A DNA stretch of 64,000 bases from a virus (IMGVR_UViG_2531839524_000004); one strand, 5' to 3'; numbered from the stretch's first letter, positions 13,479-64,000 are shown. Notes: generated from the letters alone by a model not told the origin. Made by a program: numbers and translations.

Positions 13479-13482
13479 AATT

Positions 13483-13775: not shown

Positions 13776-13862
13776 GGAGAGTAGGGAGCATGGTGCTCAA
13801 GCGGTCTTGAAAACCGTCCCATTGTGCAAACGATGATGGTTCGATTCCATTACTCTCCGCCA
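13776..13862 (+). tRNA. tRNA-Ser (anticodon TGA), long variable arm
   Basis: Acceptor GGAGAGT/ACTCTCC, anticodon loop CTTGAAA, long variable arm, T-loop TTCGATT, CCA; D-arm pairing slightly irregular. Confidence 0.7.
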
Positions 13863-25134: not shown

Positions 25135-25312
25135 ACAAAGAGAACACCATAAAGGTGGTCAAAGAATTTATGGAAGTGAACAGATTGGCGATGTGAGACA
25201 GTATCGGCTGAAGCGTCAAACCAGAGTAACGCGATCCAACATTTTTAGTAAGAAAGTCGCTTAATTGTAAGGCTCGCTAAGTAGCGAGCCTTAATAGCAA
25301 CAATAAGAGGAC

Positions 25313-26161: not shown

Positions 26162-26315
26162 TTCCGTATCCCTTGTTAAGTTATCACTGGAGCACTTTAG
26201 AGAACACTTTGATAATTAACAAGTTGCAGCCTAGTGGACAGACAAAGGCTATTGTTTGATGTAACACCAGATAGTCATATAATTGATATATAGAAATAAG
26301 TAACAGGATACATTT

Positions 26316-31409: not shown

Positions 31410-31462
31410 TTCTCGTTATTATCACACACAAGAAAACAATTTGTTAAAAGGTTAAGTTAATT

Positions 31463-32287: not shown

Positions 32288-32334
32288 AAAAAATTGTCAT
32301 TTAGCTTTACGCATGAAGCATAGAGGTTAATAAG

Positions 32335-33075
32335 ATGAAAAGAAAAATTGAAGAACCAAAAACGACCCTTAATAAACATGGGGAAAAAATTCAAACACAT
32401 CCAGCGTTCGGTCTTGTGAAAACAAGCCGTGTTAGCACAACTGGCATTCGCCTATTTGATTCAGAACTGGAACATAGAGACTATATTGAAATAGGCGTTT
32501 ACGAGGCGGAACTGTCCTTAGACAATGAACGAACCCGCCCACAAAGAAGTTGCAATAGACGGCCTTTAGTTGAAATTAGACTTAGCCAGGCACAATGGGC
32601 TGCTATGGTTAGCAGTTTTGGAGTGGGCGAAGGTGTGCCATGCACTATTTCATATAAAACCATTGGAGACTCAATTAGAGTTCATGATATTGCCGAGCAA
32701 AAAAGTATTCGGCAAAAATTCAACGATCAAATAAAGGCCGCTACGAATAGTGAGATTGATCGACTTAATCAGCAAGTTTCAGAGCTAGGTGAACTTGTGA
32801 AAAAAGGAAGAGCTGGAAAACGTGACCTTGAAGAACTATATAGAAAACTAGCATCTGCTGTAGCTAACCTTCCTGAAAATCTGTGCTTTGCTACCGAATT
32901 AATGCAGGAACAAATGGATGAAATTGTCTCATCTGGAAAGGCGGAGATTGAGGCGTATGTTGCGGGCACGGTTATGCGTAAAGGGTTAGCAGCATTAGGC
33001 ACAGAATCATGCATTAACGATGATCCTACTGTCTCTATCACCAAAATGGAAAGCGGTAAAGAATTACTGCCATAA
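32335..33075 (+). CDS. hypothetical protein
   Basis: 246 aa ORF with GAGG RBS. Confidence 0.45.
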   Translation: MKRKIEEPKTTLNKHGEKIQTHPAFGLVKTSRVSTTGIRLFDSELEHRDYIEIGVYEAELSLDNERTRPQRSCNRRPLVEIRLSQAQWAAMVSSFGVGEGVPCTISYKTIGDSIRVHDIAEQKSIRQKFNDQIKAATNSEIDRLNQQVSELGELVKKGRAGKRDLEELYRKLASAVANLPENLCFATELMQEQMDEIVSSGKAEIEAYVAGTVMRKGLAALGTESCINDDPTVSITKMESGKELLP

Positions 33076-33095
33076 ATGCATCTGAGGTACTGACA

Positions 33096-33485
33096 ATGTT
33101 TTTAATTCAACCTGGGTTCGGTTTAAAGATAAAAAAAGGGCATATGTTTGGTGAGCGAGATTCCAAACGAAAAATTCTGTCTATTCGATTACCATTTATC
33201 ACCATTCATTGGTTAAACAGAGAGTCAACCGATTATTGGTATAAATGCGCAAGAGCAGCATTTAACGACCCTGACTGGTTTGTAGAAAATCACCACGCGG
33301 TTCGTCAGGCAAAAAGAAAGGCTAATACGACATATATGAAGGCATATCAGGATGCCTGGGAAGAACATCGTGGCCGATACCAAAAAAACATTGAAAAACT
33401 TGAATCAGAAAATATGGACCTAAGAAGAAAACTCGGTGAAGCACGTCGAGACATCGAAGCATATAAACGTCTTGTATCGGAGTGA
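33096..33485 (+). CDS. hypothetical protein (start uncertain)
   Basis: ORF with coiled-coil C-terminus; internal ATG possible. Confidence 0.4.
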   Translation: MFLIQPGFGLKIKKGHMFGERDSKRKILSIRLPFITIHWLNRESTDYWYKCARAAFNDPDWFVENHHAVRQAKRKANTTYMKAYQDAWEEHRGRYQKNIEKLESENMDLRRKLGEARRDIEAYKRLVSE

Positions 33486-33546
33486 ATATATCTTTGCTTT
33501 ATTTTTTCAAAGGTGATTATTTTCCTATTTATAAGGAGAAGTAAAC

Positions 33547-42577: not shown

Positions 42578-44893
42578 ATGATAAGCATCGTAAAACGTAA
42601 CGGCCAAACAGAGCCGTTATCCGAAGAAAAATACAACCGCGTCGTAATGTATGGCGTAGAAGGCATTCGTGGTGTAAGCGCATCCGCTGTAGCAATGGGA
42701 GCTGCGGCCAGCATTTTTGATGGGATGACCACCAGCCAGTTGCATGAGGCTTTGGTTAAATCTGCCGCTGATTTGATCTCACCAGAAGCACCAAATTACT
42801 CACAGGTGGCTGCCCGCCTGAACATTTTTAAAATCCGCAAAGATGCCTTCGGTCGTTACGACTATCCGAACTTCTACCAACACATTGTCAAGAACGTTAA
42901 CAAGGGCGTTTATGACAAGGATTTGCTGACACATTATTCGTTTGAAGAGATCGAAGAACTCGGCAATTACATTAAGCCGAAACGTGACGATCTTTTTGGC
43001 TATGCAGCTACGGTGCAGTTGCAAAGCAAATACCTCGTTCAAAACCGTGTTACTGGTGAGATTCATGAGGGGCCGCAACATATCTATATGCTGGTAGGCA
43101 TGTGTCTGTTCCAGAATTGGGAAGACGACTGCGCTGGCAAAACACGTATGGAGATGGTCAAAGGTTTCTATGACGTTACAAGTACGTTCAAACTGTCTCT
43201 GCCCACACCAATCATGGCCGGCGTCCGTACTCCAACCCGTCAGTTCTCCAGTTGTGTGCTGATTGAGTCTGGCGATAGTCTGAAAGGGATTAGTGCAGCT
43301 TCAGCCGCAATTATCGACTACGTTTCACGTCGTGCTGGAATTGGTATTGGTTTTGGCCGTATCCGTGCGCTGGGCAGCGAGATCCGCAATGGTGAAGCCA
43401 CCCATACCGGAGTTATTCCATTCCTGAAGCATTTCCAGACGGCTGTTAAATCTTGTTCGCAAGGTGGTGTTCGTGGTGGCGCAGCAACAGCGTTTTACCC
43501 GATCTGGCATCTTGAAGTTGAAAGTCTGCTGGTGGTGAAAAATAACCGTGGTATTGATGAAAACCGCGTTCGCCATCTTGATTACGGCGTCATGAGTAAC
43601 CGTCTAATGTACCGTCGACTCGTCAGAAGCGAGAACATCACTCTGTTCAGCCCGCATGATGTGCCTGATATGTACGAAGCCTTCTTCACAGACCAGGAGC
43701 TGTTTGAAAAGCTGTACCATAAATACGAAGCCGATGATTCAATTCGCAAGAAGTCAGTACCTGCCATTGAGCTGTTCTCATCTCTGATGCAGGAACGAGC
43801 GTCCACGGGCCGAATTTATATTGCGAACGTCGATCATATTAATGAGCATGGCGCTTTCATTCCTGCTCTTGCACCTGTCCGCCAGTCAAACCTGTGCATG
43901 GAGATCACTCTACCCACTCGTCCACTGGCATTTACCGACGACCCGAACGGTGAGATCGCGCTATGCACTTTATCCGCTTTTAACCTCGGAGCCATCCGTT
44001 CACTGGAGTCTCTTAAAGAGGTGGCGTTCTATGCCGTTGCTGCACTGGATTCGTTACTGGATTATCAAGACTATCCGATGGAGGCAGCCGAAGTGCCTGC
44101 CAAAGCTCGTCGTAGCTTGGGAATTGGTGTAACCAACTTTGCTTATTACCTGGCAAAGAATGGCGTTCGTTATTCTGATACCGCTGGCAATAAACTGGTG
44201 CATGAAACGTTCGAAGCTATCCAGTATTACCTTCTTGATGCCAGCTGCCGACTTGCTGAAGCAAAAGGTGAGTGTGACTGGTTTGAGCAGACCAAATACG
44301 CAATTGGTCAGTTGCCGATCGACCATTACCGTTCTTCATTAGACGAAAGTGGCGAAACCAACTTTGAGTTAAAGATGCCGTGGGAAGAACTGCGTGAACG
44401 TATTGCAAAATACGGCCTTCGCAACTCCACACTGACGGCACAAATGCCATGCGAGACTTCCAGCCAGATCACTAATTCCACCAACGGCATCGAACCGCCT
44501 CGTGGCCCGGTGTCAGTGAAATCTTCTAAGGACGGCATCGTCAAGATGGTCGTGCCTGAGTTTGAAAAACTGAAGGAACAGTATGAATACCTGTGGGATA
44601 TGCCGGACAACCGCGGCTATCTGACAAAGGTGGCGATCATCCAGAAGTTCTTTGACCAGGCTATTTCGGCCAATACCAACTATGACCCTTCTCGCTTTGA
44701 AGGCGATAAAGTCCCAATGATGACGCTACTGTCAGATTTGCTTCTCGCCTACAAGATGGGAGTTAAAACGCTTTACTACCACAACACCAGAGATGGTGCA
44801 GGAAAGCGTGATGACGACGAACCGCAGAATCCACTGGCGCAAGCTGTAGCCGTCGAGCCAGAAGATGAGTGCGACGGAGCCTGCAAAATCTGA
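42578..44893 (+). CDS. nrdA: ribonucleotide reductase class Ia alpha subunit
   Basis: 771 aa; long identical stretches to enterobacterial NrdA (e.g. LVQNRVTGEI, SLPTPIMAGVRTPTRQFSSCVLIE, PVRQSNLCMEI); C-terminal CDGACKI. Confidence 0.9.
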   Translation: MISIVKRNGQTEPLSEEKYNRVVMYGVEGIRGVSASAVAMGAAASIFDGMTTSQLHEALVKSAADLISPEAPNYSQVAARLNIFKIRKDAFGRYDYPNFYQHIVKNVNKGVYDKDLLTHYSFEEIEELGNYIKPKRDDLFGYAATVQLQSKYLVQNRVTGEIHEGPQHIYMLVGMCLFQNWEDDCAGKTRMEMVKGFYDVTSTFKLSLPTPIMAGVRTPTRQFSSCVLIESGDSLKGISAASAAIIDYVSRRAGIGIGFGRIRALGSEIRNGEATHTGVIPFLKHFQTAVKSCSQGGVRGGAATAFYPIWHLEVESLLVVKNNRGIDENRVRHLDYGVMSNRLMYRRLVRSENITLFSPHDVPDMYEAFFTDQELFEKLYHKYEADDSIRKKSVPAIELFSSLMQERASTGRIYIANVDHINEHGAFIPALAPVRQSNLCMEITLPTRPLAFTDDPNGEIALCTLSAFNLGAIRSLESLKEVAFYAVAALDSLLDYQDYPMEAAEVPAKARRSLGIGVTNFAYYLAKNGVRYSDTAGNKLVHETFEAIQYYLLDASCRLAEAKGECDWFEQTKYAIGQLPIDHYRSSLDESGETNFELKMPWEELRERIAKYGLRNSTLTAQMPCETSSQITNSTNGIEPPRGPVSVKSSKDGIVKMVVPEFEKLKEQYEYLWDMPDNRGYLTKVAIIQKFFDQAISANTNYDPSRFEGDKVPMMTLLSDLLLAYKMGVKTLYYHNTRDGAGKRDDDEPQNPLAQAVAVEPEDECDGACKI

Positions 44894-44898
44894 CATAT

Positions 44899-44930
44899 GG
44901 TGGGGGATATCCCCACCTTCTCTTTGATTT
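44899..44930 (+). terminator. rho-independent terminator
   Basis: GGTGGGGGATATCCCCACC hairpin followed by TTCTCTTTGATTT. Confidence 0.65.
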
Positions 44931-44999
44931 GTAAGCCTTGTTTAAACACATAAGATAACAACTTGTTTAAACGCACCAAAAAAGAAAAAGGAAAAACAC

Positions 45000-46142
45000 A
45001 TGTCATATTCAACGTTCCGTTTGGGTGCTAATGATGCAACCAAAGAGCCTATGTTCCTCGGACAATCTGTCAACGTGGCACGTTACGATCAGCAAAAATA
45101 CCGTGATTTTGAAAAGTTGATTGAACGTCAATTGTCTTTCTTCTGGCGGCCGGAAGAAGTTGATATTTCGAGCGATCGTATCGACTTCAACACGAAGCTG
45201 CGGGACCACGAACGTCACATTTTTCTGAGCAATCTCCGTTATCAAACGTTACTCGATTCAGTTCAGGGACGTAGTCCAAATGCAACGCTGCTGCCGCTTA
45301 TCTCTATTCCTGAACTGGAAACGTGGGTTGAAACGTGGTCTTTCTCTGAGACTATCCATAGCCGCAGCTACACCCACATTATTCGTGGCATGGTGGACGA
45401 TCCGAGCATTGTTTTTGACGGTATTGTTACGGATGAAGAAATCATCAACCGAGCGATCAGTATCTCTGCTGAATATGACAGGCTTTATGGGATGACCTGC
45501 GAGCGCCAGTCGTTAGGTGAGAAGGAATTTGAGCGTCTGTACGTAAATGAATATGGCTGGGAGCCATACCCTTTGCATCGTCAGCTTTTCCGCACGTTGG
45601 TGTCCATTAATGCGCTTGAGGCGATCCGTTTCTACGTAAGTTTTGCATGTACGTTTGCCTTTGGTGAACGGAAGTTGCTTGAGGGTAACACCAAAATTAT
45701 GCGCTTTATTGCCCGTGATGAAGCTCTGCATTGCGAAGGAACTGAACGCATGATCCGCTTCATGCGTACCGGTCGCGAAGGTTTATTGTGGAAAGAGATT
45801 GCTGCTGATGAAGAAAACGTCATTTACGACACCATGAAATCAGTCGCCGAACAAGAAATGAACTGGGCAGACTATCTCTTCAAAGACGGTTCGATGATTG
45901 GTTTAAACGCGGATATTCTCAAAACCTATGTAAAATACCGCACCAATCTGGCTATGAATCGTCTTGGCCTGAAGGCTTTATTTCCAGAAGTTACCACAGA
46001 TCCGCTGGTCTGGATGAACAAGTGGTTGTTAACCGACACACTGCAAATTGCACCACAAGAGGCAGAGCAAAGCACATATCTGGTAGGTCAGATCGATTCT
46101 ACCGTGGATAAGGCTTCTCTAAGCCAGTTTGCAGACCTGTAA
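45000..46142 (+). CDS. nrdB: ribonucleotide reductase class Ia beta subunit
   Basis: 380 aa; near-identity to enterobacterial NrdB in blocks such as FFWRPEEVD and [33 protein letters not shown]. Confidence 0.9.
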
Positions 46143-46219
46143 ACCGATACAAAGCATTATGTGGCCTGGCAACGCTGGGCCACAATGGATCACAAGAATT
46201 AAGAAGGAACAAAACTAGC

Positions 46220-47089
46220 ATGAACTTTACCAAACTGACTGACCCCCTGAAACTTGCCACCGATCGTCTCATTGGATTTAAGCCAGAACCATATGAGTTG
46301 CATGAAGGTCATGGTGTAGCTACTGAAAGTATTTACAAGATGGTCGATCAGTTTCATGAACTCTTCCAGCATCCGAGACGCGTTATGCCGACACCAGAGC
46401 TGCTTCGTCTCCGTGCAAGCCTGATTCATGAAGAAGCTGTAGTGGAAGGTATTCCAGCCGCAATGAATGGGGATATTGAGCAACTGCTGGATGCAATGGC
46501 CGACTTTTTATACGTTGGTGTTGGTACGATGGTCGCCATCAAAGGTGGTATTTCTACCGGCATGACCTATTACACGCAGGAACAGAGCATTGATCGCTTT
46601 ATGCAGACAATTTTTGTGCCCGGTAACACTGTTTTCGATGATATGGCAATGCCATTTCAGGAAGCTCGTGAGGCGTCATATATGCTCGAAGAGCTGGCAG
46701 ATAAACTTGAGAACAAGACTGTTAAGGATTCTGAGCTGATTCAGGAACTGCGCCGTGTCATGAACAAAATCTATGTGGCGTGCATGATGACCTATCGACT
46801 GGCTGATTTCCTCGGTATCAATGTAGTCGAGCTGGTTGGCGAAATTCATCGGTCTAACATGACAAAATTATGGCCTGCTGATGTCGAGGAACGTCGCCAG
46901 GCTGTGGCCAACTGCAAATACGACTCTTCAGACCTGGGATTTCGCCATGCTGATGGTACCGATAAGATGATCGGTTTTCGAATTTCCGATGGAAAGATTC
47001 TGAAGTCTCCAACCTATAGTGATGTCGATTTATCCTCCTTTGTTGAGCAAGCTAAAGCCTCAGCAATGTACGGAATGATCAAAAAATAA
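46220..47089 (+). CDS. putative MazG-like nucleoside triphosphate pyrophosphohydrolase
   Basis: All-alpha candidate with acidic EEAVVEG...DIEQLLDAMADFLY pattern reminiscent of MazG/HisE; weak, by eye. Confidence 0.35.
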   Translation: MNFTKLTDPLKLATDRLIGFKPEPYELHEGHGVATESIYKMVDQFHELFQHPRRVMPTPELLRLRASLIHEEAVVEGIPAAMNGDIEQLLDAMADFLYVGVGTMVAIKGGISTGMTYYTQEQSIDRFMQTIFVPGNTVFDDMAMPFQEAREASYMLEELADKLENKTVKDSELIQELRRVMNKIYVACMMTYRLADFLGINVVELVGEIHRSNMTKLWPADVEERRQAVANCKYDSSDLGFRHADGTDKMIGFRISDGKILKSPTYSDVDLSSFVEQAKASAMYGMIKK

Positions 47090-47156
47090 TTGTAGGTAGT
47101 TATCTATCTATGTATATTGTGTTAGCGCGTTAAATTCCTGAAACAACTATTCGTTT

Positions 47157-47182
47157 TGGTGGCCTATGGCCACCATTTTTTT
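47157..47182 (+). terminator. rho-independent terminator
   Basis: TGGTGGCC-tat-GGCCACCA followed by TTTTTTT. Confidence 0.75.
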
Positions 47183-47259
47183 ATCTATCTGGCCTTGTTC
47201 CCTCAATAAATGTAAACTCACGCAATGAATAAGTGATTACTTATCTTTGTGAGGTTTTT

Positions 47260-48363
47260 GTGTCACTCCTTTTGAATCGTGAGCATACGAACGGTCAGGT
47301 AACAAACGCATCGTATGCAAAAGTTATTGAGACGGTGCTTAAAAGCGGCGTGCAGGCTGATGATCGCACAGGCACTGGTACTTTAAGCACCTGCTACGTT
47401 CCCTCTTACTACATGCTTACTGGTGGGACTGTGCCGCTTATTTCTGGAAAGGCGGTAAATCTTAAGCCACTGCTTGTCGAACTTGAGTGGTATCTGAAAG
47501 GCACGGGCAACATCCAATTTCTCAAGGATAACGGCGTTAAGATTTGGGATGCATGGGCCGATGAGAATGGCGATTTGGGGCCAGTTTACGGTAAGCAGTG
47601 GCGTCGATGGGAAGATACCCGCATCGTGAGCCATAGTGAATATCTGAGCAAGATCGCTACTTTCCGTGAACGCGGGTACAAAGTCGAGGGATACCTAGGT
47701 ATCAGTGAAGATCGCGTAGTGCTGTCCCGTGAAATCGATCAGCTACAGCGTATTGTCGATACACTGCGCACGAACCCTACCGATCGTCGCATCATGCTTA
47801 ACGCATGGAACGTAGGCGAGCTTGAGGATATGAAACTGCCACCTTGCCACTTTGTCTTCTCTTTGTGGAGTCGTGAGCTTGATTTTGAAACCCGTTTAAC
47901 GATGGCAACTGACATTGGTCTTCAACACAGTCGCCTCGGTTACGAGTCTATCTACACCAAGATGCTATACGATCTGGAGATGGACGGCAGTGTTACTGAA
48001 GCTGAACTGGATGAACTTGGAATCCCCAAACGCATCCTCAACTCCTGCCTCGTACAGCGTAGCGTAGACACTTTTGTTGGTATGCCATTCAATATTGCTG
48101 GCTATGGCATTCTCACTCATTTTCTCGCGAAGATTACGGGTCACATGGCCGGTGCATTTGTGCATTTTGGCTTTGACGTGCATTTGTACAATAACCACAT
48201 GGAAAGTGTGCGTGAGCTAATGCAACGACAGGCTCCAGAGCATTCAGATCCGGTCGTTATATTCCCTAATGAATGGTCTGAGCTGGATGATTTCAAATGG
48301 GACGAGATTCTTATTCTTGGCTATGCCCCTCTACCGTGGATCAAGGTTCCAGTGGCGGTGTGA
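47260..48363 (+). CDS. thyA: thymidylate synthase (ThyA) with two in-frame insertions
   Basis: DRTGTGT, WADENGDLGPVYGKQWR, catalytic LPPCH, MPFNIA motifs; GTG start at 47260 after GAGG RBS; about 100 aa longer than E. coli ThyA. Confidence 0.85.
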   Translation: MSLLLNREHTNGQVTNASYAKVIETVLKSGVQADDRTGTGTLSTCYVPSYYMLTGGTVPLISGKAVNLKPLLVELEWYLKGTGNIQFLKDNGVKIWDAWADENGDLGPVYGKQWRRWEDTRIVSHSEYLSKIATFRERGYKVEGYLGISEDRVVLSREIDQLQRIVDTLRTNPTDRRIMLNAWNVGELEDMKLPPCHFVFSLWSRELDFETRLTMATDIGLQHSRLGYESIYTKMLYDLEMDGSVTEAELDELGIPKRILNSCLVQRSVDTFVGMPFNIAGYGILTHFLAKITGHMAGAFVHFGFDVHLYNNHMESVRELMQRQAPEHSDPVVIFPNEWSELDDFKWDEILILGYAPLPWIKVPVAV

Positions 48364-48364
48364 T

Positions 48365-48778
48365 ATGGCAAGAGGTATGTATGTCTTATGCGAAATTGAA
48401 GGTGTGCTGGCAAATACCAGCCATCGTAAATCTGTATCTGACTCGGATGCAGGCCAATTCATTGCCGGTGATGAACTCATTTTCCCCACCAGCCGTATGT
48501 TGCGTGGTTTTGCTCGCTCAGGGGCTGAAGTGGTGCTTATCAGTAGCCGCTCTGAAACTCTTGAAGCGCCCACTAAACGATGGCTGAAAGATTTTGGTGT
48601 TGATTACGACTGGCTTCATCTCGTACCGAATAGCACTAGTTATGAGAAGCATATTAAGCGCACATTAGCGGAGCATAAAGGCGATCTGCTTATCGCTGCG
48701 CTGGTGCACGATCCTCGACTCCGTGCCGCTTTAGCTGACTCTCATCATAGACCGGTCATCTATGAGGTGAGCAAATGA
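48365..48778 (+). CDS. hypothetical protein
   Basis: 137 aa ORF between thyA and DHFR, translationally coupled. Confidence 0.45.
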   Translation: MARGMYVLCEIEGVLANTSHRKSVSDSDAGQFIAGDELIFPTSRMLRGFARSGAEVVLISSRSETLEAPTKRWLKDFGVDYDWLHLVPNSTSYEKHIKRTLAEHKGDLLIAALVHDPRLRAALADSHHRPVIYEVSK

Positions 48779-49251
48779 AGATGATAGCTGCTGTTGGCCG
48801 TAACTATGAGATCGGCATAGCGAACGAACTGCCCTGGCGTTGTTCTACCGATCTGAAGCTATTTAAGAGACTCACCAAAAACGCCACTGTCGTTATGGGG
48901 CGTAAAACGATGGAAAGTCTCAAACGCCCTCTTCCAGAGAGTCATAACCTCGTTTTGACGCGCTCTCATGGCTTTGTACCAAATGGATTCTACCCTGCTG
49001 GTGTGGATGATGTGTTGCGATTACCAGAGCCTGTGTGGGTGATTGGCGGGGAACAAATTTACTCGCTATTCATGCCGCATGTTGAAGAGATTTGGCTCTC
49101 CCACATCGGCGTTGATGTGCCAAACGCCGATGCATTCTTCCCGGCAAGCATGATGCGTAATTTAGGCTTTGTGCCTGTTGAAACAGCTTATACCCAACGA
49201 GCCAGCGAGGAAGAGCCTGGCTTTTCGCAGATCGTATACAGAAGGTCGTAA
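48775..49251 (+). CDS. folA: dihydrofolate reductase
   Basis: MKMIAAVGRNYEIGIANELPWR N-terminus and overall DHFR-like length/pattern (VMGRKT, VIGGEQIY). Confidence 0.75.
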   Translation: MKMIAAVGRNYEIGIANELPWRCSTDLKLFKRLTKNATVVMGRKTMESLKRPLPESHNLVLTRSHGFVPNGFYPAGVDDVLRLPEPVWVIGGEQIYSLFMPHVEEIWLSHIGVDVPNADAFFPASMMRNLGFVPVETAYTQRASEEEPGFSQIVYRRS

Positions 49252-55798: not shown

Positions 55799-55828
55799 CA
55801 AGGGCCAAATGGCCCTTGTGTTTCGTTG
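55799..55828 (+). terminator. rho-independent terminator
   Basis: ACAAGGGCC-aaat-GGCCCTTGT followed by GTTTCGTT. Confidence 0.7.
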
Positions 55829-55934: not shown

Positions 55935-56504
55935 ATGTGCAAGAAATGCAAAGCGATAGCTGATGAACAAAACGCCTTATTCGAAGAAATGGATGCTAAT
56001 GAACTGGTCAAAATGTTAGCCATTCTTCGAGGAATAGAAGACGTTTCCATATTTGAGAGAGTGGTTACAGCACTTAATTTTGAGTCCACCTTTGAAGAGC
56101 CAACTCAGGTTGTAGCTTTAGCACATCATTTCGGTGTTCATTATCTTGCTGAAAAAGAGCGCGCTGATAAGTTGCAGGCGACTTTGGATATGGTGAGCGA
56201 GACTCAACGAACTGATGACACTAACAAGAGTGAGGCGATTATTGCCAGCAAAGATCGTGAAATTGCTGGGCTTAAATCCTCTCTAACGATGTTGATGTCT
56301 GCGTTCAATCTTATGTCTTCTCAGGCGGGTTATAAAATGCCATCACTAAACAGCGATGATCCGATGGCCGTTCGTCAGCTTTTGGGAGCAATGGCCGACC
56401 AACTCGACGACACAAAGAGTCGGCTTGAAGACATGATGCGTGAGTTAAGCCATCGACATAACCTCGCAACACAGCCACACAAAGCCTTTCAAAGCTCTAA
56501 TTGA
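55935..56504 (+). CDS. hypothetical protein
   Basis: 189 aa; conserved leader GGAAAAACACATG. Confidence 0.5.
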   Translation: MCKKCKAIADEQNALFEEMDANELVKMLAILRGIEDVSIFERVVTALNFESTFEEPTQVVALAHHFGVHYLAEKERADKLQATLDMVSETQRTDDTNKSEAIIASKDREIAGLKSSLTMLMSAFNLMSSQAGYKMPSLNSDDPMAVRQLLGAMADQLDDTKSRLEDMMRELSHRHNLATQPHKAFQSSN

Positions 56505-56559
56505 TCTGATATGGCCGCATGATCGGCCATATTGTGTTGATAAAAAACAAGGATGAAAA

Positions 56560-56841
56560 ATGGCATACGGTACAGGGATTTACAACAATAAAGGAATTAA
56601 CGTTACTGGCTTCCTTACTCCTATTTTTTTTCTTGATCGATTTACTGCGTCATCAGGCTCTAAGACGTACTCCAATCCGCCACCGGGTAAATCGCTACAT
56701 GCCGTGTGGTCATTGATGCCTCTTAACAACGACAACTACATTAATTTACCTGTTCCAACAGTTACTATTAATGGAAATACGGTTAGTTGGTCAAATTTAT
56801 ATACGGGGCTTGGTTCTTACATATACACATACTGGGGATAA
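56560..56841 (+). CDS. hypothetical protein (AT-rich cassette)
   Basis: 93 aa; Gly/Asn/Thr/Tyr-rich. Confidence 0.4.
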   Translation: MAYGTGIYNNKGINVTGFLTPIFFLDRFTASSGSKTYSNPPPGKSLHAVWSLMPLNNDNYINLPVPTVTINGNTVSWSNLYTGLGSYIYTYWG

Positions 56842-56843
56842 TT

Positions 56844-57458
56844 ATGTTCGGGATGTCAATTACTCAATCAGATGGAAGTTTGTGGATGAGTCCAGAATTT
56901 ACTCCGCAAAATCTGATTAATAAAGGGACAATGTCTACATCTAAAGGTTCTGTTTTTCAAACATCAATCCCATCAAACAAATCATGCTTTTTCTTCATAA
57001 AAAGCAGTAATAAGGCGAACATGATGTTTATTCATGAGCATAGTAACGGATACAATGCTCTCAGATTGCATCAGGTAAATGGTAGCCCCGGAACAATAAC
57101 AGTTTATGCTTTTTCTGATATGGTGTTACCACATTCTGGCTATGGCATTGCCATGTATAACAGCGCAGGCGCAATGGTGTATCACGGTGAGATGATGCCC
57201 CTTGATGCGAAACTTATCACTATTTCGGACCCTCAATTTACCATAGATGTGGGGTATCCGTGTGCGGTAATGCCTGCTATGGTTGGGGTTTATAACTATA
57301 GACGAACCGATTACGACAGACCTGTCTATGTAACTATGACCGGTGCAACTGGAAACCAAGTATATAACGGTCAATGGTATTCCGGTAATGTCACATGGGA
57401 TATTAAGAAGATTTATACAAACAAAATCCTGGTTATAAATACCTCAAAGTATGATTAG
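56844..57458 (+). CDS. hypothetical protein (AT-rich cassette)
   Basis: ATG 56844 directly after upstream stop; 204 aa; Gly/Asn/Tyr-rich. Confidence 0.45.
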   Translation: MFGMSITQSDGSLWMSPEFTPQNLINKGTMSTSKGSVFQTSIPSNKSCFFFIKSSNKANMMFIHEHSNGYNALRLHQVNGSPGTITVYAFSDMVLPHSGYGIAMYNSAGAMVYHGEMMPLDAKLITISDPQFTIDVGYPCAVMPAMVGVYNYRRTDYDRPVYVTMTGATGNQVYNGQWYSGNVTWDIKKIYTNKILVINTSKYD

Positions 57459-57561
57459 CAAATACCTTTATTTAAAGGATTGCCTGTTAATTTCTATTTA
57501 GCACCTTTTCATTTTTGAAATAATTGCACCATTAAACAAATCTTTTCTTAATGGTGCAATT

Positions 57562-59247
57562 ATGAATACAGCTCTTTCCATCATCGACGATGCCAACTCA
57601 AACACTGCTATCGATTATCGTCAGGAAATGAACGTCATCCACGAAATTGTGGCCGAGTGCGAGAAGGAGATCGCCTTCATGTATCAGGTTCACGACTTCG
57701 TTTATGGAGACGAACGCCACAACATGATTAATCGCCTGCTGCAACTGAACCACCGACCAGATGAAGAACGCTCACGTTTGAATCGAGCTTGGCTGGATAA
57801 AGTCGATCTGGAATGGGTGAAACAGAATATTTGGGCCGAGTACTGGAGGAAGGTCACGGATATGACTAACGTTCTGCTGATCATGCCAGCTTCCCGTCGC
57901 GACGAGTGGCGTGAGCAGTTTATCGAGGGTAAGCAGGAAGTCATCAAAACTGACAGAACCGGCTATCAGATGAAGGTAAAAGAGTTCGTTGGTGTACCGG
58001 AGTTCAAAGCAGAAACGGTCATACCCACGATGCTTAATTTGCTGAATGACAGGCACAAATATCTCTCTGAGCGCGTGTATGGCTTGTTTAAGGCGCTGAG
58101 TCCTGCGCACAAGACAAATAAGACAAACGGTTTCAGCGAACGTCTGATAATCGCTGACTGCATTTCTGATTTCTGGCGGGACAGCGTTAGTGTGAACTAT
58201 CGCAAAGAGGACTATATCGACGATCTGCGTGTCTTGCTTCATTTCTTCGCGCACAAAGAATTTATTACCATCAACCGCACTGCTGAGGTGCTATCAGCTG
58301 CGTATCGGGCAAACGACTGCCGGACCGGTGACTGGATGAACGTCGATGGAAATCTGATGCGCGTGAAGATGTTCAAGAACGGCAACGTTCACTTTGAAAT
58401 ACATCCTGACGTGGCCTGGAAGTTGAATGAGGGGCTGGCTTACAGTATGCCTGCTGCAATCCCCGCGCCATGTCGCACCGCGCCAAAAACACGGGCACCA
58501 AAGCAGTTCGGGTTAATCCAGAAGACGATCTCCGTGCCGGTTCGCACTGCGCTTCGTGACGGGCGATTGAGCAAAGACAAAGGCGTATGGTACTTCTCTG
58601 ATTCAGCTCTCCAGAAGTCGCAGGTGGAAGAGCTTGAGCGCACACTGAGCTTCATTGGCGGCGTGCAGGAGAAAAAGCACTGGCAGTTCCCGTATGACAT
58701 CGTCCATACGCTAAATACGATTGTGGCTACCGGTTTAATACCGGATACAAAATCACACCAGTTCTACCCTCCCCCACGCTTGATTGCTGAGTACGTTGCC
58801 AGAGCCACTGAATTGAAGTCTGGTGAGAAGCTGCTGGAGCCTCAAGCCGGACGTGGGGATCTTCTGGCCTATATTAACGCCGATCTGGAAGATGTTACCT
58901 GCATAGAAATCGCACCTCTCTTCGCTGATATCCTGCGTGGAAAAGGGTATACGAACACGATTTGCTGCGACTTCATAAAGTGGTCTGAGGACAACGTAGG
59001 TTATCAGTTCGACAAAATCGTTATGAACCCGCCGTATTCGCTTGGTCGTCATAGAGAGCACACGCTGGCTGCGCTGGGGCATCTGAAAGTCGGCGGGCGT
59101 CTTGTAGCAGTATTGCCGGGCACTGCGCCAATACTGGACTGGATGACGATGGATAATTACGTTTATGCCAGAGGGAAGTCGTTTACCAACGAGTTTGAAG
59201 ACACAGGGATCACAGTCAGCGTATACGTTTTCAAACGCGTTAAATGA
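57562..59247 (+). CDS. large protein with C-terminal amino-methyltransferase domain (gamma-class, NPPY)
   Basis: C-terminal motif I-like LLEPQAGRGDLL and motif IV IVMNPPYS; N-terminal about 400 aa without recognisable motifs. Confidence 0.65.
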   Translation: MNTALSIIDDANSNTAIDYRQEMNVIHEIVAECEKEIAFMYQVHDFVYGDERHNMINRLLQLNHRPDEERSRLNRAWLDKVDLEWVKQNIWAEYWRKVTDMTNVLLIMPASRRDEWREQFIEGKQEVIKTDRTGYQMKVKEFVGVPEFKAETVIPTMLNLLNDRHKYLSERVYGLFKALSPAHKTNKTNGFSERLIIADCISDFWRDSVSVNYRKEDYIDDLRVLLHFFAHKEFITINRTAEVLSAAYRANDCRTGDWMNVDGNLMRVKMFKNGNVHFEIHPDVAWKLNEGLAYSMPAAIPAPCRTAPKTRAPKQFGLIQKTISVPVRTALRDGRLSKDKGVWYFSDSALQKSQVEELERTLSFIGGVQEKKHWQFPYDIVHTLNTIVATGLIPDTKSHQFYPPPRLIAEYVARATELKSGEKLLEPQAGRGDLLAYINADLEDVTCIEIAPLFADILRGKGYTNTICCDFIKWSEDNVGYQFDKIVMNPPYSLGRHREHTLAALGHLKVGGRLVAVLPGTAPILDWMTMDNYVYARGKSFTNEFEDTGITVSVYVFKRVK

Positions 59248-59308
59248 TAGGTAAATACTTACCTAATTTGTGTAAGAATGTAGTTACTAAACGATAAGAG
59301 AAAAACAC

Positions 59309-60013
59309 ATGAACAACCTCCAGTTAGAGCATTTTAACGTCACAGGCCATTCTGATTTTCCTTTCAAGTTTACATTGAAAGGTTATGCAGAGGATGCGGT
59401 AGGCCAGATCATTATTGATAAAGGCATCGTTAAGTTTGAGGGGGATTTTGATGAATCCGCGAAAACATTCATAGACTTCGTTGCCAAACGTTGGAGCGAG
59501 CAATGGAAAAACCTGGAAAAGCGCGCCAATGAGTTTGATCGGTTCATGGATGCAATGGATACAGCAAAAGAGGCTCTTGATGCCGGGACTCCGTTAGATC
59601 TGGAGTCACTTTTCAACGGCGAAGTGGCCTCTGCGATGTTTGCCACCATGTTCGCGGGTGAGTTCGTCCGCAGCGGTGCCAAAAACTACCTTGAGCTGGA
59701 TTACAACGTCCCTGCAATTGGCGATTTCGTCGTTACCATCCAACGCAAAGAAGGTAAGACGCCAGGTGAACGCGTCGCAGAGCTTGAGGCCGTTGTGGAT
59801 CAGCGTAACGGAGAGTGTGACCGTTTGATCAACGAGCTTCATGCACTTCGGGAAGAAAGAATATGTGCGGGTAGCAATACACGTAATGCAGCGGATATCT
59901 ACTTCCAGTTAGTTGAGGAATGCCAGATTCCACCAGGTGGCTCTCTTGTCGATTACGTCAGACATTTAATGGCGGAAGTTAACTCCAGCCATAAAGATGG
60001 TGAGGTGCGCTGA
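59309..60013 (+). CDS. hypothetical protein
   Basis: 234 aa; conserved leader AGAAAAACACATG. Confidence 0.5.
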   Translation: MNNLQLEHFNVTGHSDFPFKFTLKGYAEDAVGQIIIDKGIVKFEGDFDESAKTFIDFVAKRWSEQWKNLEKRANEFDRFMDAMDTAKEALDAGTPLDLESLFNGEVASAMFATMFAGEFVRSGAKNYLELDYNVPAIGDFVVTIQRKEGKTPGERVAELEAVVDQRNGECDRLINELHALREERICAGSNTRNAADIYFQLVEECQIPPGGSLVDYVRHLMAEVNSSHKDGEVR

Positions 60014-60393
60014 TGTTTGGCATTGACGCACAGCGTATAGCCGCTTTTGCAAAAAGCCCTCTTGATAATCCCTTGTCTCGTAGTGAGCAAATGGAGCTGG
60101 CAAGGCTTTTTCTTCACATTCAAAAACAGGCAGACATTTTCAATAACATGCCTAATCAACCTATTCTGGATGGTCACATCCAGATGGTCATTAACAGTCA
60201 TGAGAAAGGCTGGGCTGCAATCGTCCCCTGCACAATTACATACAAGTTGGCGAAAGAGGTTCAAGAGTTTCGAAAAGCCAGTGTCGAATCGGAGTCTACC
60301 AAAGCCGCAATAAACACTCTTATTCGCATGGGGTTCACATGGACCGGTGGAGCCTACTGGCAAGCACCTCACCCCATTTTATCCGGCAATTAG
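60013..60393 (+). CDS. hypothetical protein
   Basis: 126 aa, ATGA-coupled to upstream gene. Confidence 0.5.
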   Translation: MFGIDAQRIAAFAKSPLDNPLSRSEQMELARLFLHIQKQADIFNNMPNQPILDGHIQMVINSHEKGWAAIVPCTITYKLAKEVQEFRKASVESESTKAAINTLIRMGFTWTGGAYWQAPHPILSGN

Positions 60394-60423
60394 ACGCTAC
60401 AAATCCTTCGGCATGAATAAATA

Positions 60424-60460
60424 AAGGCCATAAGTTGTGGCCTTAAATAAATTGTTTTCT
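60424..60460 (+). terminator. putative terminator
   Basis: AAGGCCA-taagttg-TGGCCTT hairpin followed by A/T-rich tract ending in TTTTCT. Confidence 0.4.
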
Positions 60461-60512
60461 ACCTTTTCTTATTTGTGAAAATAACCACAACTAGAAAACA
60501 ACGGAGTTAAGA

Positions 60513-61154
60513 ATGTCTAGTATTTCCGAAGCTCATATGTTCGCCGCTGGCGCTCATGGTGGCGTTGGTCAGAAAAGAAAATATACCGGCGAAGACTACA
60601 TCAACCACCCGGTTGCTGTCCGAGAGATTGTTGCATTGCATGACGGAACCGTGGAGATGCAAATCGCGGCGCTTCTGCATGATGTGGTCGAAGACACCCA
60701 TGTAACCATAGAGATGGTTCGTGATCACTTCGGTGAGCGCGTAGCTGAAATGGTTCAGGCTCTGACCAACATTGCAAGGCCAGAAGACGGCAATCGAATA
60801 CAGCGTTTCATCATCAATGTCCGGGAGCTGGAGCAAAATCTCGACATGCAGACGCGCATGATCAAGCTGGCTGACCTGCTCGACAATACCTCTTCTATCG
60901 TGAGTCGCGATCCCGAGTTTTCAGCTGTCTACCTCGCAGAGAAAGAACTGATGCTGGACGTACTCTTTCACGGCAAAGAGATTGGTGCCAATGCTGATGT
61001 TGTCGAGTACATGGAGAGGATCGGTATAGAACACCCGTTGCTATTAAGCGCAATGGCGAAAGTCACTGAAGGTATTGCGCTTCTGAAACCGGTACACATC
61101 AAACGTTATGAAAAACACAAATCGCTGATCTGGAGCGCGTGGGAGGCTGCATGA
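60513..61154 (+). CDS. RelA/SpoT-type HD-domain hydrolase (small alarmone hydrolase-like)
   Basis: HPVAV...AALLHDVVEDT...FGERVAEMV...IKLADLLDN matches the (p)ppGpp hydrolase HD domain motifs. Confidence 0.75.
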   Translation: MSSISEAHMFAAGAHGGVGQKRKYTGEDYINHPVAVREIVALHDGTVEMQIAALLHDVVEDTHVTIEMVRDHFGERVAEMVQALTNIARPEDGNRIQRFIINVRELEQNLDMQTRMIKLADLLDNTSSIVSRDPEFSAVYLAEKELMLDVLFHGKEIGANADVVEYMERIGIEHPLLLSAMAKVTEGIALLKPVHIKRYEKHKSLIWSAWEAA

Positions 61155-61693
61155 AGGTCGAAAAAATAGATGTTCTTTCCTTTGTGCTGACGGATCTGGA
61201 ACGCCTCGATCCGGTTCGAGTAATGATTGAAAACTACGAACCTGGTAAGGGAAGAATCACCATCATCTGCTACGGAAAAGCGTGGACTGCGGCTTGGTTT
61301 GCTATGGGCGGTGATGATGTGCAGACGTTCATTAAGCGGGTCAGCAACGAGTATCTAATCGGCTATTTCGACTCTCAACTGCGAAGCACGGTCGACGATG
61401 ACAACGATGCAAATCTGCTTTTCGTGAAGTCAGAAATCATAAAGTTACGAAGAGAGAGAGAAATAGACGCCGTACTGGCTCGCGAAATGTGGGACGAGGC
61501 GGAAAACGCCGATGACGTAAAAGAAAGCTGCTGTTGTTTCGGCGTCGGTAACAAACTGCTGAATCTCTTTGGTGATGATCCGTGGTATGCCGACTGGCCA
61601 ACGGTACCAAACCCGAAATACCAGTATCTGGAACGCATTGTGAACGCGGTACGTGAAGGGCTGAAAGAGTTAGATAAGTTAGAGGCATCGTAA
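61151..61693 (+). CDS. hypothetical protein
   Basis: ATG 61151 after GGGAGG RBS; overlaps HD hydrolase 3' end. Confidence 0.45.
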   Translation: MKVEKIDVLSFVLTDLERLDPVRVMIENYEPGKGRITIICYGKAWTAAWFAMGGDDVQTFIKRVSNEYLIGYFDSQLRSTVDDDNDANLLFVKSEIIKLRREREIDAVLAREMWDEAENADDVKESCCCFGVGNKLLNLFGDDPWYADWPTVPNPKYQYLERIVNAVREGLKELDKLEAS

Positions 61694-62115
61694 TGAGAGA
61701 GAAAATCAAGAACCCGGTCGTCGTATTGTATAAACGGGAAACCAGCGATTCTTATGCGGTATCCATCACTGATGGAAGCCAGAACATGCACGATGGTCTG
61801 CTAATGGCCTCCGTATCTCCTGATGATTCTGACTACCCTTTCGCCACTTTCGCTATGGTTGGTTACTACATGGCTGCCGAAATTGAGAAGTTGCGTGTTG
61901 AGCTGGAGACCGTTAAACAGCGGGAAAAGGATCTGTTTATGGAAAATGTTCGACTTAAGTCAGGTATAGCCGGTCTGATACACCTCGGTATTCGATATGC
62001 GGATGTTGAGGTCATGAAAATTGCTGGAGATGCCCAGCTTTCTACTCCATGCACTGACAGCATCATAAACAGCATTGCAGCAGGCATTTTCACCAAAGAG
62101 GGGGCAGCACGATGA
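61693..62115 (+). CDS. hypothetical protein
   Basis: 140 aa, coupled. Confidence 0.45.
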   Translation: MREKIKNPVVVLYKRETSDSYAVSITDGSQNMHDGLLMASVSPDDSDYPFATFAMVGYYMAAEIEKLRVELETVKQREKDLFMENVRLKSGIAGLIHLGIRYADVEVMKIAGDAQLSTPCTDSIINSIAAGIFTKEGAAR

Positions 62116-62297
62116 GAACACTAGAGGTTCGCGCTGAAGACGTAATCCCTGGTGATGTGCTCATAACATCTAAAGGTCAACAATGTGCGGTTAAATCTTT
62201 TTGGATGGAAAATGACAAAGTGACTCTGTTCGGTACGGATGGTTCCGAAACTGATTATGACTACGACGAATTGCTTGTTGTTGAGAGAGCTGCCTAA
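62112..62297 (+). CDS. hypothetical small protein
   Basis: 61 aa, coupled. Confidence 0.35.
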   Translation: MRTLEVRAEDVIPGDVLITSKGQQCAVKSFWMENDKVTLFGTDGSETDYDYDELLVVERAA

Positions 62298-62950
62298 TGA
62301 CCACCGTTAACAATAAGAAATGCTACCCAAGCGAGAAATATCTTAATGAGCTGATCACCAACATTGAGTTTGCTGCAAAGGCACCAGTTGAAGTCGTGAG
62401 AGCGATTGCAGCAGAGCTACAGAAGCACCGTAAGGCCTATGCCAATACAGCCGCATCTAAGGATGGTTGGATAAGCTGTAGTGAGCGAATGCCTGTAATT
62501 GGCGAGCTAAATTGGAGAACTAGTTTTCCTTTACTGGTTATGTGTGAGATCGGCGTTATACCTGCTTATTACGGCTTTGTGAGCGTTAATGGTGATAGGC
62601 ATTATGGCTTTATGGAGAGTCTTAAATACGGAGACGATAACGGCAACCATCCTCAAACTAATGAATATGGTCTGATTAGCAATGTCACACACTGGATGCC
62701 ACTACCAGAACGCCGCAGGAGTCGAACAGTGAATAATGCAGAGTTATTTCAGAAAATATCGGCTCTCGCGACTGAATGCCACGCTATAGCATCTGAGCTT
62801 GATGTTGGCGATGAACGAACCGAGATGTTCGAAATATACAGTGTGCTGCGCAATCTCTGTCGGCGTGGCTACGCCACTCAAGTAGGGCGAATGACTAACC
62901 CACTACTCTCATCCTGTGATGAGGATGACTCGGATGAGGATGACGAATGA
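62297..62950 (+). CDS. hypothetical protein (possible DUF551-like phage protein)
   Basis: 217 aa; WISCSERMP pattern recalled from a phage protein family, unverified. Confidence 0.4.
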   Translation: MTTVNNKKCYPSEKYLNELITNIEFAAKAPVEVVRAIAAELQKHRKAYANTAASKDGWISCSERMPVIGELNWRTSFPLLVMCEIGVIPAYYGFVSVNGDRHYGFMESLKYGDDNGNHPQTNEYGLISNVTHWMPLPERRRSRTVNNAELFQKISALATECHAIASELDVGDERTEMFEIYSVLRNLCRRGYATQVGRMTNPLLSSCDEDDSDEDDE

Positions 62951-63330
62951 TGCATAAATCAGTAGCCGGTGAGTTTCAGAAGGAAGTCGATAATACCACT
63001 GATCTATTGGACGATATTTTAAGCATTCTCGCGCTGCTTGAGGCTGGCGATTGGTCAGAACATTGCACTCAAACAGAGCTAGGCGGTCGGCTTGAAAGAG
63101 AGATTACACGACTGATTAGCGATGCCCAAAATGATTTGTCACCTGAGCATCTCCCCTGCGATGTAGTTCTTGTGCCAGGGATGAGGATACACGAAGGCGT
63201 CAGAACGAAAACATTATTAACCGCATTACAGAGAAGAGCCGAACTAAGCTCGCGGATAAAGTTGATGCCATCCAAAATATTTGATGTCGTCAAATTTACG
63301 CCATCGCAACATACTGAGAGAGATAAATGA
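62947..63330 (+). CDS. hypothetical protein
   Basis: 127 aa, coupled. Confidence 0.4.
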   Translation: MMHKSVAGEFQKEVDNTTDLLDDILSILALLEAGDWSEHCTQTELGGRLEREITRLISDAQNDLSPEHLPCDVVLVPGMRIHEGVRTKTLLTALQRRAELSSRIKLMPSKIFDVVKFTPSQHTERDK

Positions 63331-63707
63331 GCACGGTAGCGAAAGATCTCACAGAAGATATTCTCAATGAAATTATTGCTGGTGCAAATACCTCGCTTGA
63401 GCAACTTCTTGCGTTAGCACTGAGAGCCGAACGTCGAGACAGAAATCGTTTTTATGAGCGATTACCAGGGAAGCGACCAGATAGATCGGATGAAGAAGGT
63501 TGCGATATAGACTACATGGAGCCTTCAGAGATTTATCAACTTGGTAAAGATGACGGCTGGAACGCTTATCACGATGCTGTGATGAAGTTGGATGAAAAAG
63601 TTAAACCTCTTTCTCGACCGGTAGATCACGGTTTCCGCGATAACTGCGAATGCTCTAGTTGCCAGACCACGGCCCGTATTTGTTCCGAATTGACAGATAA
63701 GTCGTAA
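63327..63707 (+). CDS. hypothetical protein; stop codon lies inside the IS terminal sequence
   Basis: 126 aa; TAA at 63705-63707 is part of GTAAGCG at the putative IS end. Confidence 0.4.
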   Translation: MSTVAKDLTEDILNEIIAGANTSLEQLLALALRAERRDRNRFYERLPGKRPDRSDEEGCDIDYMEPSEIYQLGKDDGWNAYHDAVMKLDEKVKPLSRPVDHGFRDNCECSSCQTTARICSELTDKS

Positions 63708-64000
63708 GCGTAAACTGACCGCCGTATGTAGCCATCAGACGAGAATTGGTAACTTAGACGCCCATCTGATATAGACGGACATCTAAGTATGGAATTACAG
63801 GACTGGCGAAAAGAACCTCGTAAAAACTATTCGAATGAATTCAAACTTCGTATGGTGGAACTGGCATCACAACCTGGAGCTTGTGTTGCACAGATTGCAC
63901 GTGAAAATGGCGTCAATGATAATGTTATTTTCAAATGGCTCAGGCTCTGGCAGAACGAAGGGCGTGTTTCGCGGCGTCTTCCGGTAACGACCTCTTCTGA
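63704..64000 (+). mobile_element. left end of an insertion sequence (IS66-family-like), truncated by window edge
   Basis: GTAAGCG terminus recalled as typical of IS66-family inverted repeats; HTH transposase-accessory ORF starts about 85 bp inside. Confidence 0.45.
63789..64000 (+). CDS. IS transposase accessory protein (TnpA/OrfA-type HTH), 5' partial at window end
   Basis: MELQDWRKEPRKNYSNEFKLRMVELASQPGACVAQIARENGVNDNVIFKWLRLWQ is a typical IS HTH OrfA pattern; no stop before 64000. Confidence 0.5.
   Translation, partial: MELQDWRKEPRKNYSNEFKLRMVELASQPGACVAQIARENGVNDNVIFKWLRLWQNEGRVSRRLPVTTSS

Follow-up and report, generated by a model that had tools for sequence, protein, structure and literature searches.

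Salmonella phage SSU5 carries a single RSH-like gene, SSU5_099 (protein YP_006906731), which is labelled in GenBank as a 'putative guanosine polyphosphate pyrophosphohydrolase/synthetase'. Its product is the small alarmone hydrolase (SAH) that was named PaSpo by Jimmy et al. (2020) and classed by them as a 'stand-alone phage-encoded SAH' (PMC7229694). In E. coli, SSU5 PaSpo neutralises all five of the toxSAS toxins against which it was tested, namely CapRel, PhRel, PhRel2, FaRel and FaRel2 (Jimmy et al., 2020, PNAS, PMC7229694, Table 1). SAHs of another subfamily, PbcSpo, which includes ATfaRel of Cellulomonas marina and the SAH of Salmonella phage PVP-SE1, are likewise single-domain RSH hydrolases, active against all of the toxSAS tested, and the antitoxin activity requires the aspartate of the HD motif, as the D54A variant of ATfaRel is inactive (PMC7229694). 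The Discussion of the same paper already suggests that phage hydrolases bypass alarmone- or toxSAS-based defence. PaSpo has since been co-expressed for the purification of CapRel-SJ46 (Zhang et al., 2022, Nature, PMC9712102), and also with PhRel2 and FaRel2 as a detoxifier, for which leaky expression is enough (bioRxiv 2024.07.05.602228).

The chemistry that such hydrolases reverse is not confined to alarmones. [quoted passage not shown] The in vitro data on tRNA repair that we found in the searchable literature concern these two enzymes, and a search of the same literature returned neither an in vitro assay of PaSpo itself nor a paper in which PaSpo aids SSU5 or a phage-plasmid in a real infection.

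The DNA considered here (the window, a 64,000-nt stretch of viral origin, IMGVR_UViG_2531839524_000004) is part of an E. coli SSU5-like phage-plasmid. The 3 kb surrounding the gene of interest shares 99% identity with E. coli plasmids of approximately 110 kb that are non-mobilizable, among them pECOH89 and pLAU-OXA1, and 86% identity with Salmonella phage SSU5. Most of the window is matched by pLAU-OXA1 at 97–99% identity, and this plasmid carries genes for capsid, portal, terminase, tape-measure and tail proteins together with dnaE, nrdAB, thyA, a DHFR gene and partition genes. An earlier reading of the window, made from the sequence only, had described the gene as phage-plasmid-encoded, and the 99% match to plasmids that bear phage structural genes and are relatives of SSU5 bears this description out.

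On the + strand, an open reading frame with an ATG start and a TGA stop extends from position 60513 to 61154 and specifies a protein of 213 amino acids; a Shine–Dalgarno sequence, GGAG, can be read at 60503–60506 (+ strand), 6 nt 5′ of the start codon. On the combined basis of the ORF call, profile searches and an AF2 model, we annotate it as an SAH of the PaSpo subfamily that is orthologous to SSU5_099. The protein matches Pfam PF13328 (HD_4) with E = 1.2e-18 and 67.8 bits against a cut-off of 27.2, PF01966 (HD) with a score of 26.9 against a cut-off of 22, and phrog_990 ('metal-dependent phosphohydrolase') with E = 2.9e-55. Its match to NCBIfam TIGR00691 (spoT_relA, E = 1.4e-24) is confined to the hydrolase portion of the profile (positions 1–123 of 687). 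In the PDB, the proteins matched by sequence are SpoT, Rel, human and fly MESH1 and bacterial SAHs, with E-values from 1e-13 to 1e-5. By these sequence comparisons, the match to the family is far above chance.

The domain content agrees with that of an enzyme reduced to hydrolysis. A Pfam scan of the 213 residues found HD_4 and HD only, and no synthetase (RelA_SpoT, PF04607), TGS or ACT domain; a protein of this length has no space for a synthetase domain. The sequence-only reading had proposed a protein that has RelA/SpoT-type hydrolase motifs and lacks a synthetase domain, and both halves of that proposal are borne out by the Pfam and TIGR00691 matches, which cover the hydrolase part only, and by the translation, in which INHPVAV (containing H32), AALLHDVVEDT (residues 52–62) and IKLADLLDN (residues 117–125) are all present. 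What defines membership of the RSH hydrolase domain within the HD_4/HD superfamily, that is the profile match, the metal tetrad, the ED pair and a helical HD fold, was found in full, and the architecture of an SAH, a hydrolase domain alone, is seen in the AF2 model as one compact helical domain.

In HMMER alignments with Acinetobacter baumannii SpoT, Mycobacterium tuberculosis Rel and human MESH1, residues H32, H56-D57, E60-D61 and D121, followed by N125, lie opposite the HP, HD, ED and KLAD...N motifs. The codon for the first metal ligand, His32, is located at 60606–60608 (+ strand) and aligns with the histidine of the HP motif in human MESH1 and SpoT. The codons for H56-D57-V-V-E60-D61, which carry the metal ligands of the HD motif and the catalytic ED pair as identified by alignment and conservation, occupy 60678–60695 (+ strand). 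Those for D121-L-L-D-N125, comprising the last metal ligand and the substrate-contacting asparagine, occupy 60873–60887 (+ strand), opposite the 'KLADxxxN' of MESH1 and SpoT. Conservation was assessed in an alignment of 32 homologues sharing 43–88% identity, which also served as input for the AF2 model. Thirteen residues are invariant in this alignment (R22, Y24, T25, Y29, H32, P33, H56, E60, D61, T62, K118, D121 and N125), and D57 is retained in 31 of the 32 sequences. Loss of the metal-binding His and Asp residues on careful alignment had been named beforehand as grounds for abandoning the hydrolase assignment, and H32, H56, D57 and D121 are all there. Residues 10–129 of the protein align with residues 34–152 of the RelSeq chain. 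In the RelSeq structure of Hogg et al. from 2004, the classical residues are reportedly H53, H77, D78, E81, D82, D144 and N148. We take the metal tetrad H32, H56, D57 and D121 to be the equivalent of RelSeq H53, H77, D78 and D144, a correspondence that fits the aligned coordinate ranges.

The predicted fold leads to the same family. The AF2 model has a mean pLDDT of 96.7 and a pTM of 0.92, and its best Foldseek match in the PDB is human MESH1 (3nr1), with a target-normalised TM-score of 0.83 and an rmsd of 2.5 Å. Drosophila Mesh1, the Pseudomonas aeruginosa SAH, Corynebacterium glutamicum RelH and the hydrolase domains of Rel and SpoT follow, and the 40 matches listed at E ≤ 0.001, of 41 counted by the tool, are all Mesh1, SAH, Rel or SpoT. 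Sequence, fold and literature thus concur with the earlier proposal of a stand-alone SAH of the SpoT/Mesh1 type.

Each of these relatives differs from the window protein in some respect. The HD domains of long RSH enzymes (RelSeq 1vj7, Thermus thermophilus Rel 6s2t and A. baumannii SpoT 7qpr) share the catalytic motifs and give the best PDB sequence matches, with E = 1e-13 to 1e-10 over residues 10–139, but those enzymes also possess synthetase, TGS, ACT and regulatory domains, whereas the window protein consists of the hydrolase domain alone. Bacterial SAHs (P. aeruginosa 6yvc, C. glutamicum RelH 7qoc/7qod and Bacteroides caccae 7smg) share the fold and the single-domain architecture, but they are only 21–27% identical to the protein and are chromosomal rather than borne on a phage-plasmid. 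Human MESH1 (HDDC3; 3nr1, 5vxa, 9chy) has the same HP/HD/ED/D...N layout and is 26–28% identical; it neutralises toxSAS (PMC7229694) and repairs pyrophosphorylated tRNA (bioRxiv 2021.04.30.441581). At approximately 179 amino acids, however, MESH1 lacks two elements of the phage-plasmid protein, an extra segment of about 20 residues at approximately 153–173 and a C-terminal helix at 193–212, both of which are extra also by comparison with homologues of about 175 amino acids.

MESH1 is in addition a reported NADPH phosphatase, and its structures with NADPH and PAPS (5vxa, 9chy) are among the best structural matches to our model. Metabolic promiscuity has also been described for an orphan SAH from bacteria (PMC9765508). 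The gene could on these grounds encode a metabolic phosphatase, either acting on NADPH as human MESH1 does or, as a promiscuous nucleotide phosphohydrolase, adjusting cofactor levels to suit the nucleotide-synthesis genes of the element. We consider this very improbable. The activity of the orthologue in cells is the neutralisation of toxSAS products, for which pyrophosphate must be removed from the 3′ position of nucleotides or tRNA (PMC7229694), and no link is seen between the gene and the nrd/thyA/DHFR cluster, which lies at 42578–49251, some 11 kb or more upstream.

A far closer counterpart is PaSpo of SSU5 itself. The two proteins align without gaps over their full length and are identical at 186 of 213 positions (87%); we used this identity to the SSU5 protein, the named PaSpo representative (PMC7229694), as a proxy for subfamily placement. 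Both consist of 213 amino acids, retain all catalytic residues and are encoded on SSU5-like phage-plasmids at the same position, after genes for a DUF4942 methyltransferase and Ead/Eaa-like proteins, and both genes overlap a phiTE_072-family gene through ATGA. They differ in host, which is Salmonella for SSU5 and E. coli for the element studied here, and in 27 substitutions. Eighteen of these fall within residues 141–213, so that the 13% amino-acid difference from the tested SSU5 protein is concentrated in the C-terminal 70 residues. Relative to the SSU5 gene, dN/dS is 0.20 overall, 0.10 for residues 1–140 and 0.32 for residues 141–213, figures that point to purifying selection, strongest in the catalytic core. 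Considering sequence, model and published data on the orthologue together, the gene probably encodes a functional stand-alone SAH that belongs to the PaSpo subfamily and is the counterpart, by orthology, of SSU5 PaSpo on an E. coli phage-plasmid.

The orthology also bears on what had been proposed for the function of the gene. The sequence-only reading suggested that the enzyme could neutralise alarmone-producing toxins. Neutralisation stands, in that the 87% identical orthologue acts against five toxSAS; the description of the toxins needs refining, because four of those five classes make no alarmones. Rescue from toxSAS toxicity had been put forward as an experimental check, and since neutralisation by SSU5 PaSpo is published, this check has already been done on the orthologue. 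The identity and interpretation given to the gene are therefore correct but have been known since 2020, and they introduce no new kind of biology.

As SAHs adjoining toxSAS genes do act as antitoxins (PMC7229694), we considered whether the gene could be the type IV antitoxin of a toxSAS module carried on the same element, in the manner of ATfaRel, which is encoded beside its toxin FaRel in C. marina. Pfam scans detected no RelA_SpoT synthetase in the nine neighbouring ORFs or in ten ORFs in or beside the segments of the window that are absent from pLAU-OXA1, and none is annotated on the whole of pLAU-OXA1 (97–99% identical). The SSU5 enzyme, too, was classed as 'stand-alone' by Jimmy et al. 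(PMC7229694). With no toxSAS found on the element, the SAH is not a cis antitoxin. A candidate of the ATfaRel kind should have an adjoining, co-conserved toxSAS gene; here no such partner is seen and the neighbours vary between lineages, and we reject this explanation as almost certainly wrong. PADLOC models likewise gave no match, either for the SAH or for the two small ORFs that flank it on each side, four in all.

The gene opens a string of seven + strand ORFs (60513–63707) linked by start/stop overlaps of 1 or 4 nt, an arrangement that the earlier reading had recognised as a run of small coupled genes. It is preceded by a 119-nt spacer (60394–60512) that contains a G+C-rich hairpin, AAGGCCATAAGTTGTGGCCTT, at 60424–60444. 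In form the hairpin resembles a terminator or boundary element; a pattern scan calls a terminator here on the − strand only. The spacer folds better than shuffled sequences (z = −3.17). Its 3′ part belongs to cassette-specific DNA that is missing in phage Cyrano, and for this reason we do not read the folded leader as a regulator. A pattern scan of the + strand from 59200 to 63900 found no sigma-70-like promoter.

Comparison with Cyrano delimits the cassette. The phage is 100% identical to the window up to position 60487 and then continues directly into a homologue of the ORF that begins at 61693, which defines a two-gene unit at 60488–61692 (+ strand) that is present in some SSU5-like phage-plasmids and absent from others. 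The second gene, at 61151–61693 (+ strand, start as assigned by PGAP), encodes a 180-amino-acid protein of the family PF26211 (Phage_phiTE_072; phrog_3451), and its ATG overlaps the stop codon of the SAH gene. The cassette occurs in SSU5-like elements of E. coli, Salmonella, Enterobacter and Citrobacter. Chromosomal lambdoid prophages nevertheless often encode PF26211 proteins with no HD gene in the vicinity, while a Klebsiella phage-plasmid carries a PaSpo of 52% identity that lies upstream of the DUF4942 methyltransferase gene and has no phiTE_072 partner. An AF2 model of the 180-amino-acid protein (pLDDT 77.7) had no fold match in the PDB, and NCBIfam, the Pfam scan and PADLOC gave no functional match for it. 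An obligate functional pair is unsupported by these observations; as judged from gene order, the pairing is local and does not constitute a conserved two-component system.

Distribution data show that the SAH gene is dispensable. It is present in 44 of 5,426 complete E. coli genomes, always on a plasmid. Of 401 plasmids that match the 3-kb region, only 144 have a match to the SAH gene, in 122 cases covering 80% or more of it, and most SSU5-like plasmids of E. coli lack the gene. PaSpo-bearing plasmids are found in Escherichia, Enterobacter, Salmonella, Citrobacter and Klebsiella. Decayed forms are varied. They include a chimera in which residues 60–213 of PaSpo are fused to an AAA-ATPase, a second in which the C-terminal part of PaSpo follows an Ead-like protein, a truncation of 139 amino acids, a D57G variant (P0009), and pM160133_p3, in which an IS1-mediated deletion has left 43 nt of the gene. 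The N-terminal His ligands are missing from P0010 and P0012. This patchy presence, combined with repeated independent decay, indicates that the SAH gene is accessory and often lost, as would be expected of a conditionally useful counter-measure.

The existence of P0010, P0012, P0009 and pM160133_p3 raises the question of whether the copy in the window is itself an inactive or decaying remnant. It is full length and has all catalytic residues and a good ribosome-binding site, and a cluster at 99% identity comprises 705 member sequences. On the intact active site, the ribosome-binding site and the overall dN/dS of 0.20 we reject a dead gene, and decay of this copy is accordingly an extremely unlikely explanation.

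The same distribution bears on whether the enzyme is directed at the host's own alarmones. SpoT, Rel, Mesh1 and bacterial SAHs, the closest characterised relatives, are (p)ppGpp hydrolases, Jimmy et al. mention a known connection between phage infection and the accumulation of alarmones (PMC7229694), and the element is rich in genes for replication and nucleotide supply (dnaE, nrdAB, thyA and DHFR). The SAH might thus lower host (p)ppGpp during take-over of the cell, which would sustain DNA replication and the production of rRNA, tRNA and ribosomes in lytic growth, or would permit the plasmid prophage to replicate in starved cells. This role would be compatible with the counter-toxin function that we favour, and we regard it as possible, if rather doubtful. 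E. coli already has SpoT, and because the gene is missing from most E. coli SSU5-like plasmids it is not required for replication or lytic growth.

An advantage to the lysogen is another explanation to be weighed. Among the relatives in sequence and fold are the SAH of P. aeruginosa (6yvc, 6z3n, 6z3o) and a (p)ppApp hydrolase from Bacteroides (7smg), and FaRel, a ppApp-producing toxin, is neutralised by PaSpo (PMC7229694). The gene could then confer orphan immunity against the (p)ppApp-synthetase toxins of competitors, such as type VI effectors of the Tas1 type or MuF polymorphic toxins. Its location in a run of early-type phage genes, and a distribution that tracks phage-plasmid lineages rather than niches known for (p)ppApp toxins, make this improbable.

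We favour instead a function directed against toxSAS encountered in the host, and the residues identified above suggest how it would be carried out. The protein is predicted to be a single HD-domain 3′-pyrophosphohydrolase that depends on a divalent metal, which is Mn2+ in relatives. The metal would be held by H32, H56, D57 and D121, catalysis would be performed by E60 together with D61, and the substrate would be held by R22/K23, Y29 and N125, resulting in removal of the pyrophosphate from the ribose 3′-OH. (p)ppGpp, (p)ppApp and tRNA pyrophosphorylated at its 3′-CCA end are all likely substrates. We infer that the E. coli allele shares the activity of SSU5 PaSpo, and that PaSpo itself hydrolyses both alarmones and pyrophosphorylated tRNA. 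[quoted passage not shown]

In a cell defended by a toxSAS, such an enzyme would most likely act as a broad counter-measure in trans when the phage-plasmid enters or grows. By erasing the product of the toxin, the hydrolase would allow translation and phage production to go on, and the element would escape abortive infection of the toxSAS type. Prophages of Salmonella and E. coli carry CapRel defences, which are also present in Enterobacter and Klebsiella. Escape from this type of abortive infection is a plausible benefit to the element, since the genera that host CapRel overlap those in which PaSpo-bearing plasmids are found.

A more specific proposal, which we offer tentatively and consider unlikely to hold in full, is that PaSpo is a lineage-variable counter-defence gene whose natural substrate is pyrophosphorylated tRNA and not alarmones. 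The insert at approximately residues 153–173 and the helix at 193–212, both additions to the Mesh1 core specific to the phage-plasmid form, would adapt the enzyme to tRNA 3′ ends, and its patchiness, evident in the 144 of 401 plasmids and in the decayed copies, would track exposure to CapRel in Enterobacteriaceae. In a weaker variant of this proposal, the SAH and the phiTE_072-family protein to which it is coupled through ATGA would work jointly, as the two parts of one module.

To what is known of PaSpo, the present analysis adds the orphan status of the gene, its residence in a two-gene cassette that is often missing or decayed, and pyrophosphorylated tRNA as a likely substrate. The SSU5 orthologue is a broad-spectrum neutraliser whose targets include CapRel, a well-studied enterobacterial anti-phage system, and the phage-plasmid family that carries the SAH spreads CTX-M-15 in clinical E. 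coli. If the enzyme is active during infection, it would represent an enzymatic form of counter-defence that erases the product of the effector rather than blocking the sensor, and it would help to account for the host range of SSU5-like elements.

The gene for the small alarmone hydrolase (SAH; window 60513-61154, + strand), an orthologue of the SSU5 protein PaSpo, forms with the phiTE_072-family open reading frame (ORF) that follows it a cassette (window 60488-61692) that is variably present among SSU5-like elements. The cassette was compared with positions 4189-4231 of a phage Cyrano locus that carries no SAH gene. Its left junction is sharp and falls at window 60487/60488, 25 nt upstream of the SAH start codon, and its right side passes into a diverged Ea22-like gene.

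The second gene of the cassette is a 180-aa ORF (window 61151-61693, + strand; Pfam PF26211, Phage_phiTE_072; phrog_3451), whose ATG shares the sequence ATGA with the SAH stop codon. The encoded protein is strongly conserved, with a mean column identity of 76% over 25 homologues. Its AF2 model (pLDDT 77.7) has an N-terminal four-stranded sheet plus helices, and no fold match to this model was found in the PDB. Genes of the phiTE_072 family are common in chromosomal lambdoid prophages, where they lie with an MT-A70 methylase gene on one side and a gene for a DksA/TraR zinc-finger protein on the other. The PHROG 3451 profile (287 positions) is divided between two ORFs of the window, as profile positions 13-101 match the N-terminus of a 234-aa ORF (59309-60013) and positions 105-282 match the entire 180-aa ORF; the two parts are therefore a single protein in some phages. 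The split match points to mosaic recombination in this part of the window.

Upstream of the SAH gene is a 119-nt spacer (window 60394-60512) with a G+C-rich hairpin of 9 bp (60424-60444). The predicted fold of the spacer is more stable than those of shuffled sequences (z = -3.17), and its outer stem is paired with the GGAG ribosome-binding site. No sigma-70-like promoter was found on the + strand of window 59200-63900. On the same side, a 561-aa protein (window 57562-59247, + strand; phrog_6263) combines an N-terminal DUF4942 domain with a C-terminal DNA methyltransferase domain. This protein matches the PADLOC model 'mad2' (methylation-associated defence; E = 2.7e-14) and also type II methyltransferase models, and its position close to the PaSpo gene is conserved in elements from E. 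coli, Salmonella and Klebsiella.

Related plasmids carry PaSpo genes in decayed form (proteins P0009-P0012 and plasmid pM160133_p3). The decayed forms include residues 60-213 joined to an AAA-ATPase N-terminus, the C-terminal part joined to an Ead-like N-terminus, a truncation (139 aa), and a D57G form with a frameshifted tail. In pM160133_p3 (locus L010, 2501-2543), an IS1-associated deletion has left 43 nt of the gene adjoining apbC.

Six window segments (831-2244, 3380-4309, 7819-9017, 25127-26276, 31457-33527 and 56484-57503) have no megablast match in the E. coli plasmid pLAU-OXA1, which is 97-99% identical elsewhere, and are therefore variable cargo. This cargo includes genes for GIY-YIG (3434-4201, - strand), Sel1-repeat (7864-8901, - strand), DUF4365 (25313-26161, - strand) and DUF1281_C/Api92-like (31463-32287) proteins. 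In place of two ORFs without a Pfam hit (1023-2198), pLAU-OXA1 carries a DUF1778/GNAT (TacAT-like) toxin-antitoxin pair. The ISEcp1-blaCTX-M-15 insertion of pLAU-OXA1 is absent from the window at about 55819-55824, where the flanking alignments share 6 nt, an overlap that looks like the empty target site.

The element carries a cluster of four tRNA genes (Asn-GTT, Tyr-GTA, Thr-TGT and Ser-TGA; window 13312-13862, + strand), and related plasmids encode methionyl-tRNA synthetase (metG) just past the right end of the window; the element therefore has tRNA-related genes as well as the hydrolase. The hydrolase that these genes accompany has an orthologue that counteracts toxins modifying tRNA 3′ ends.
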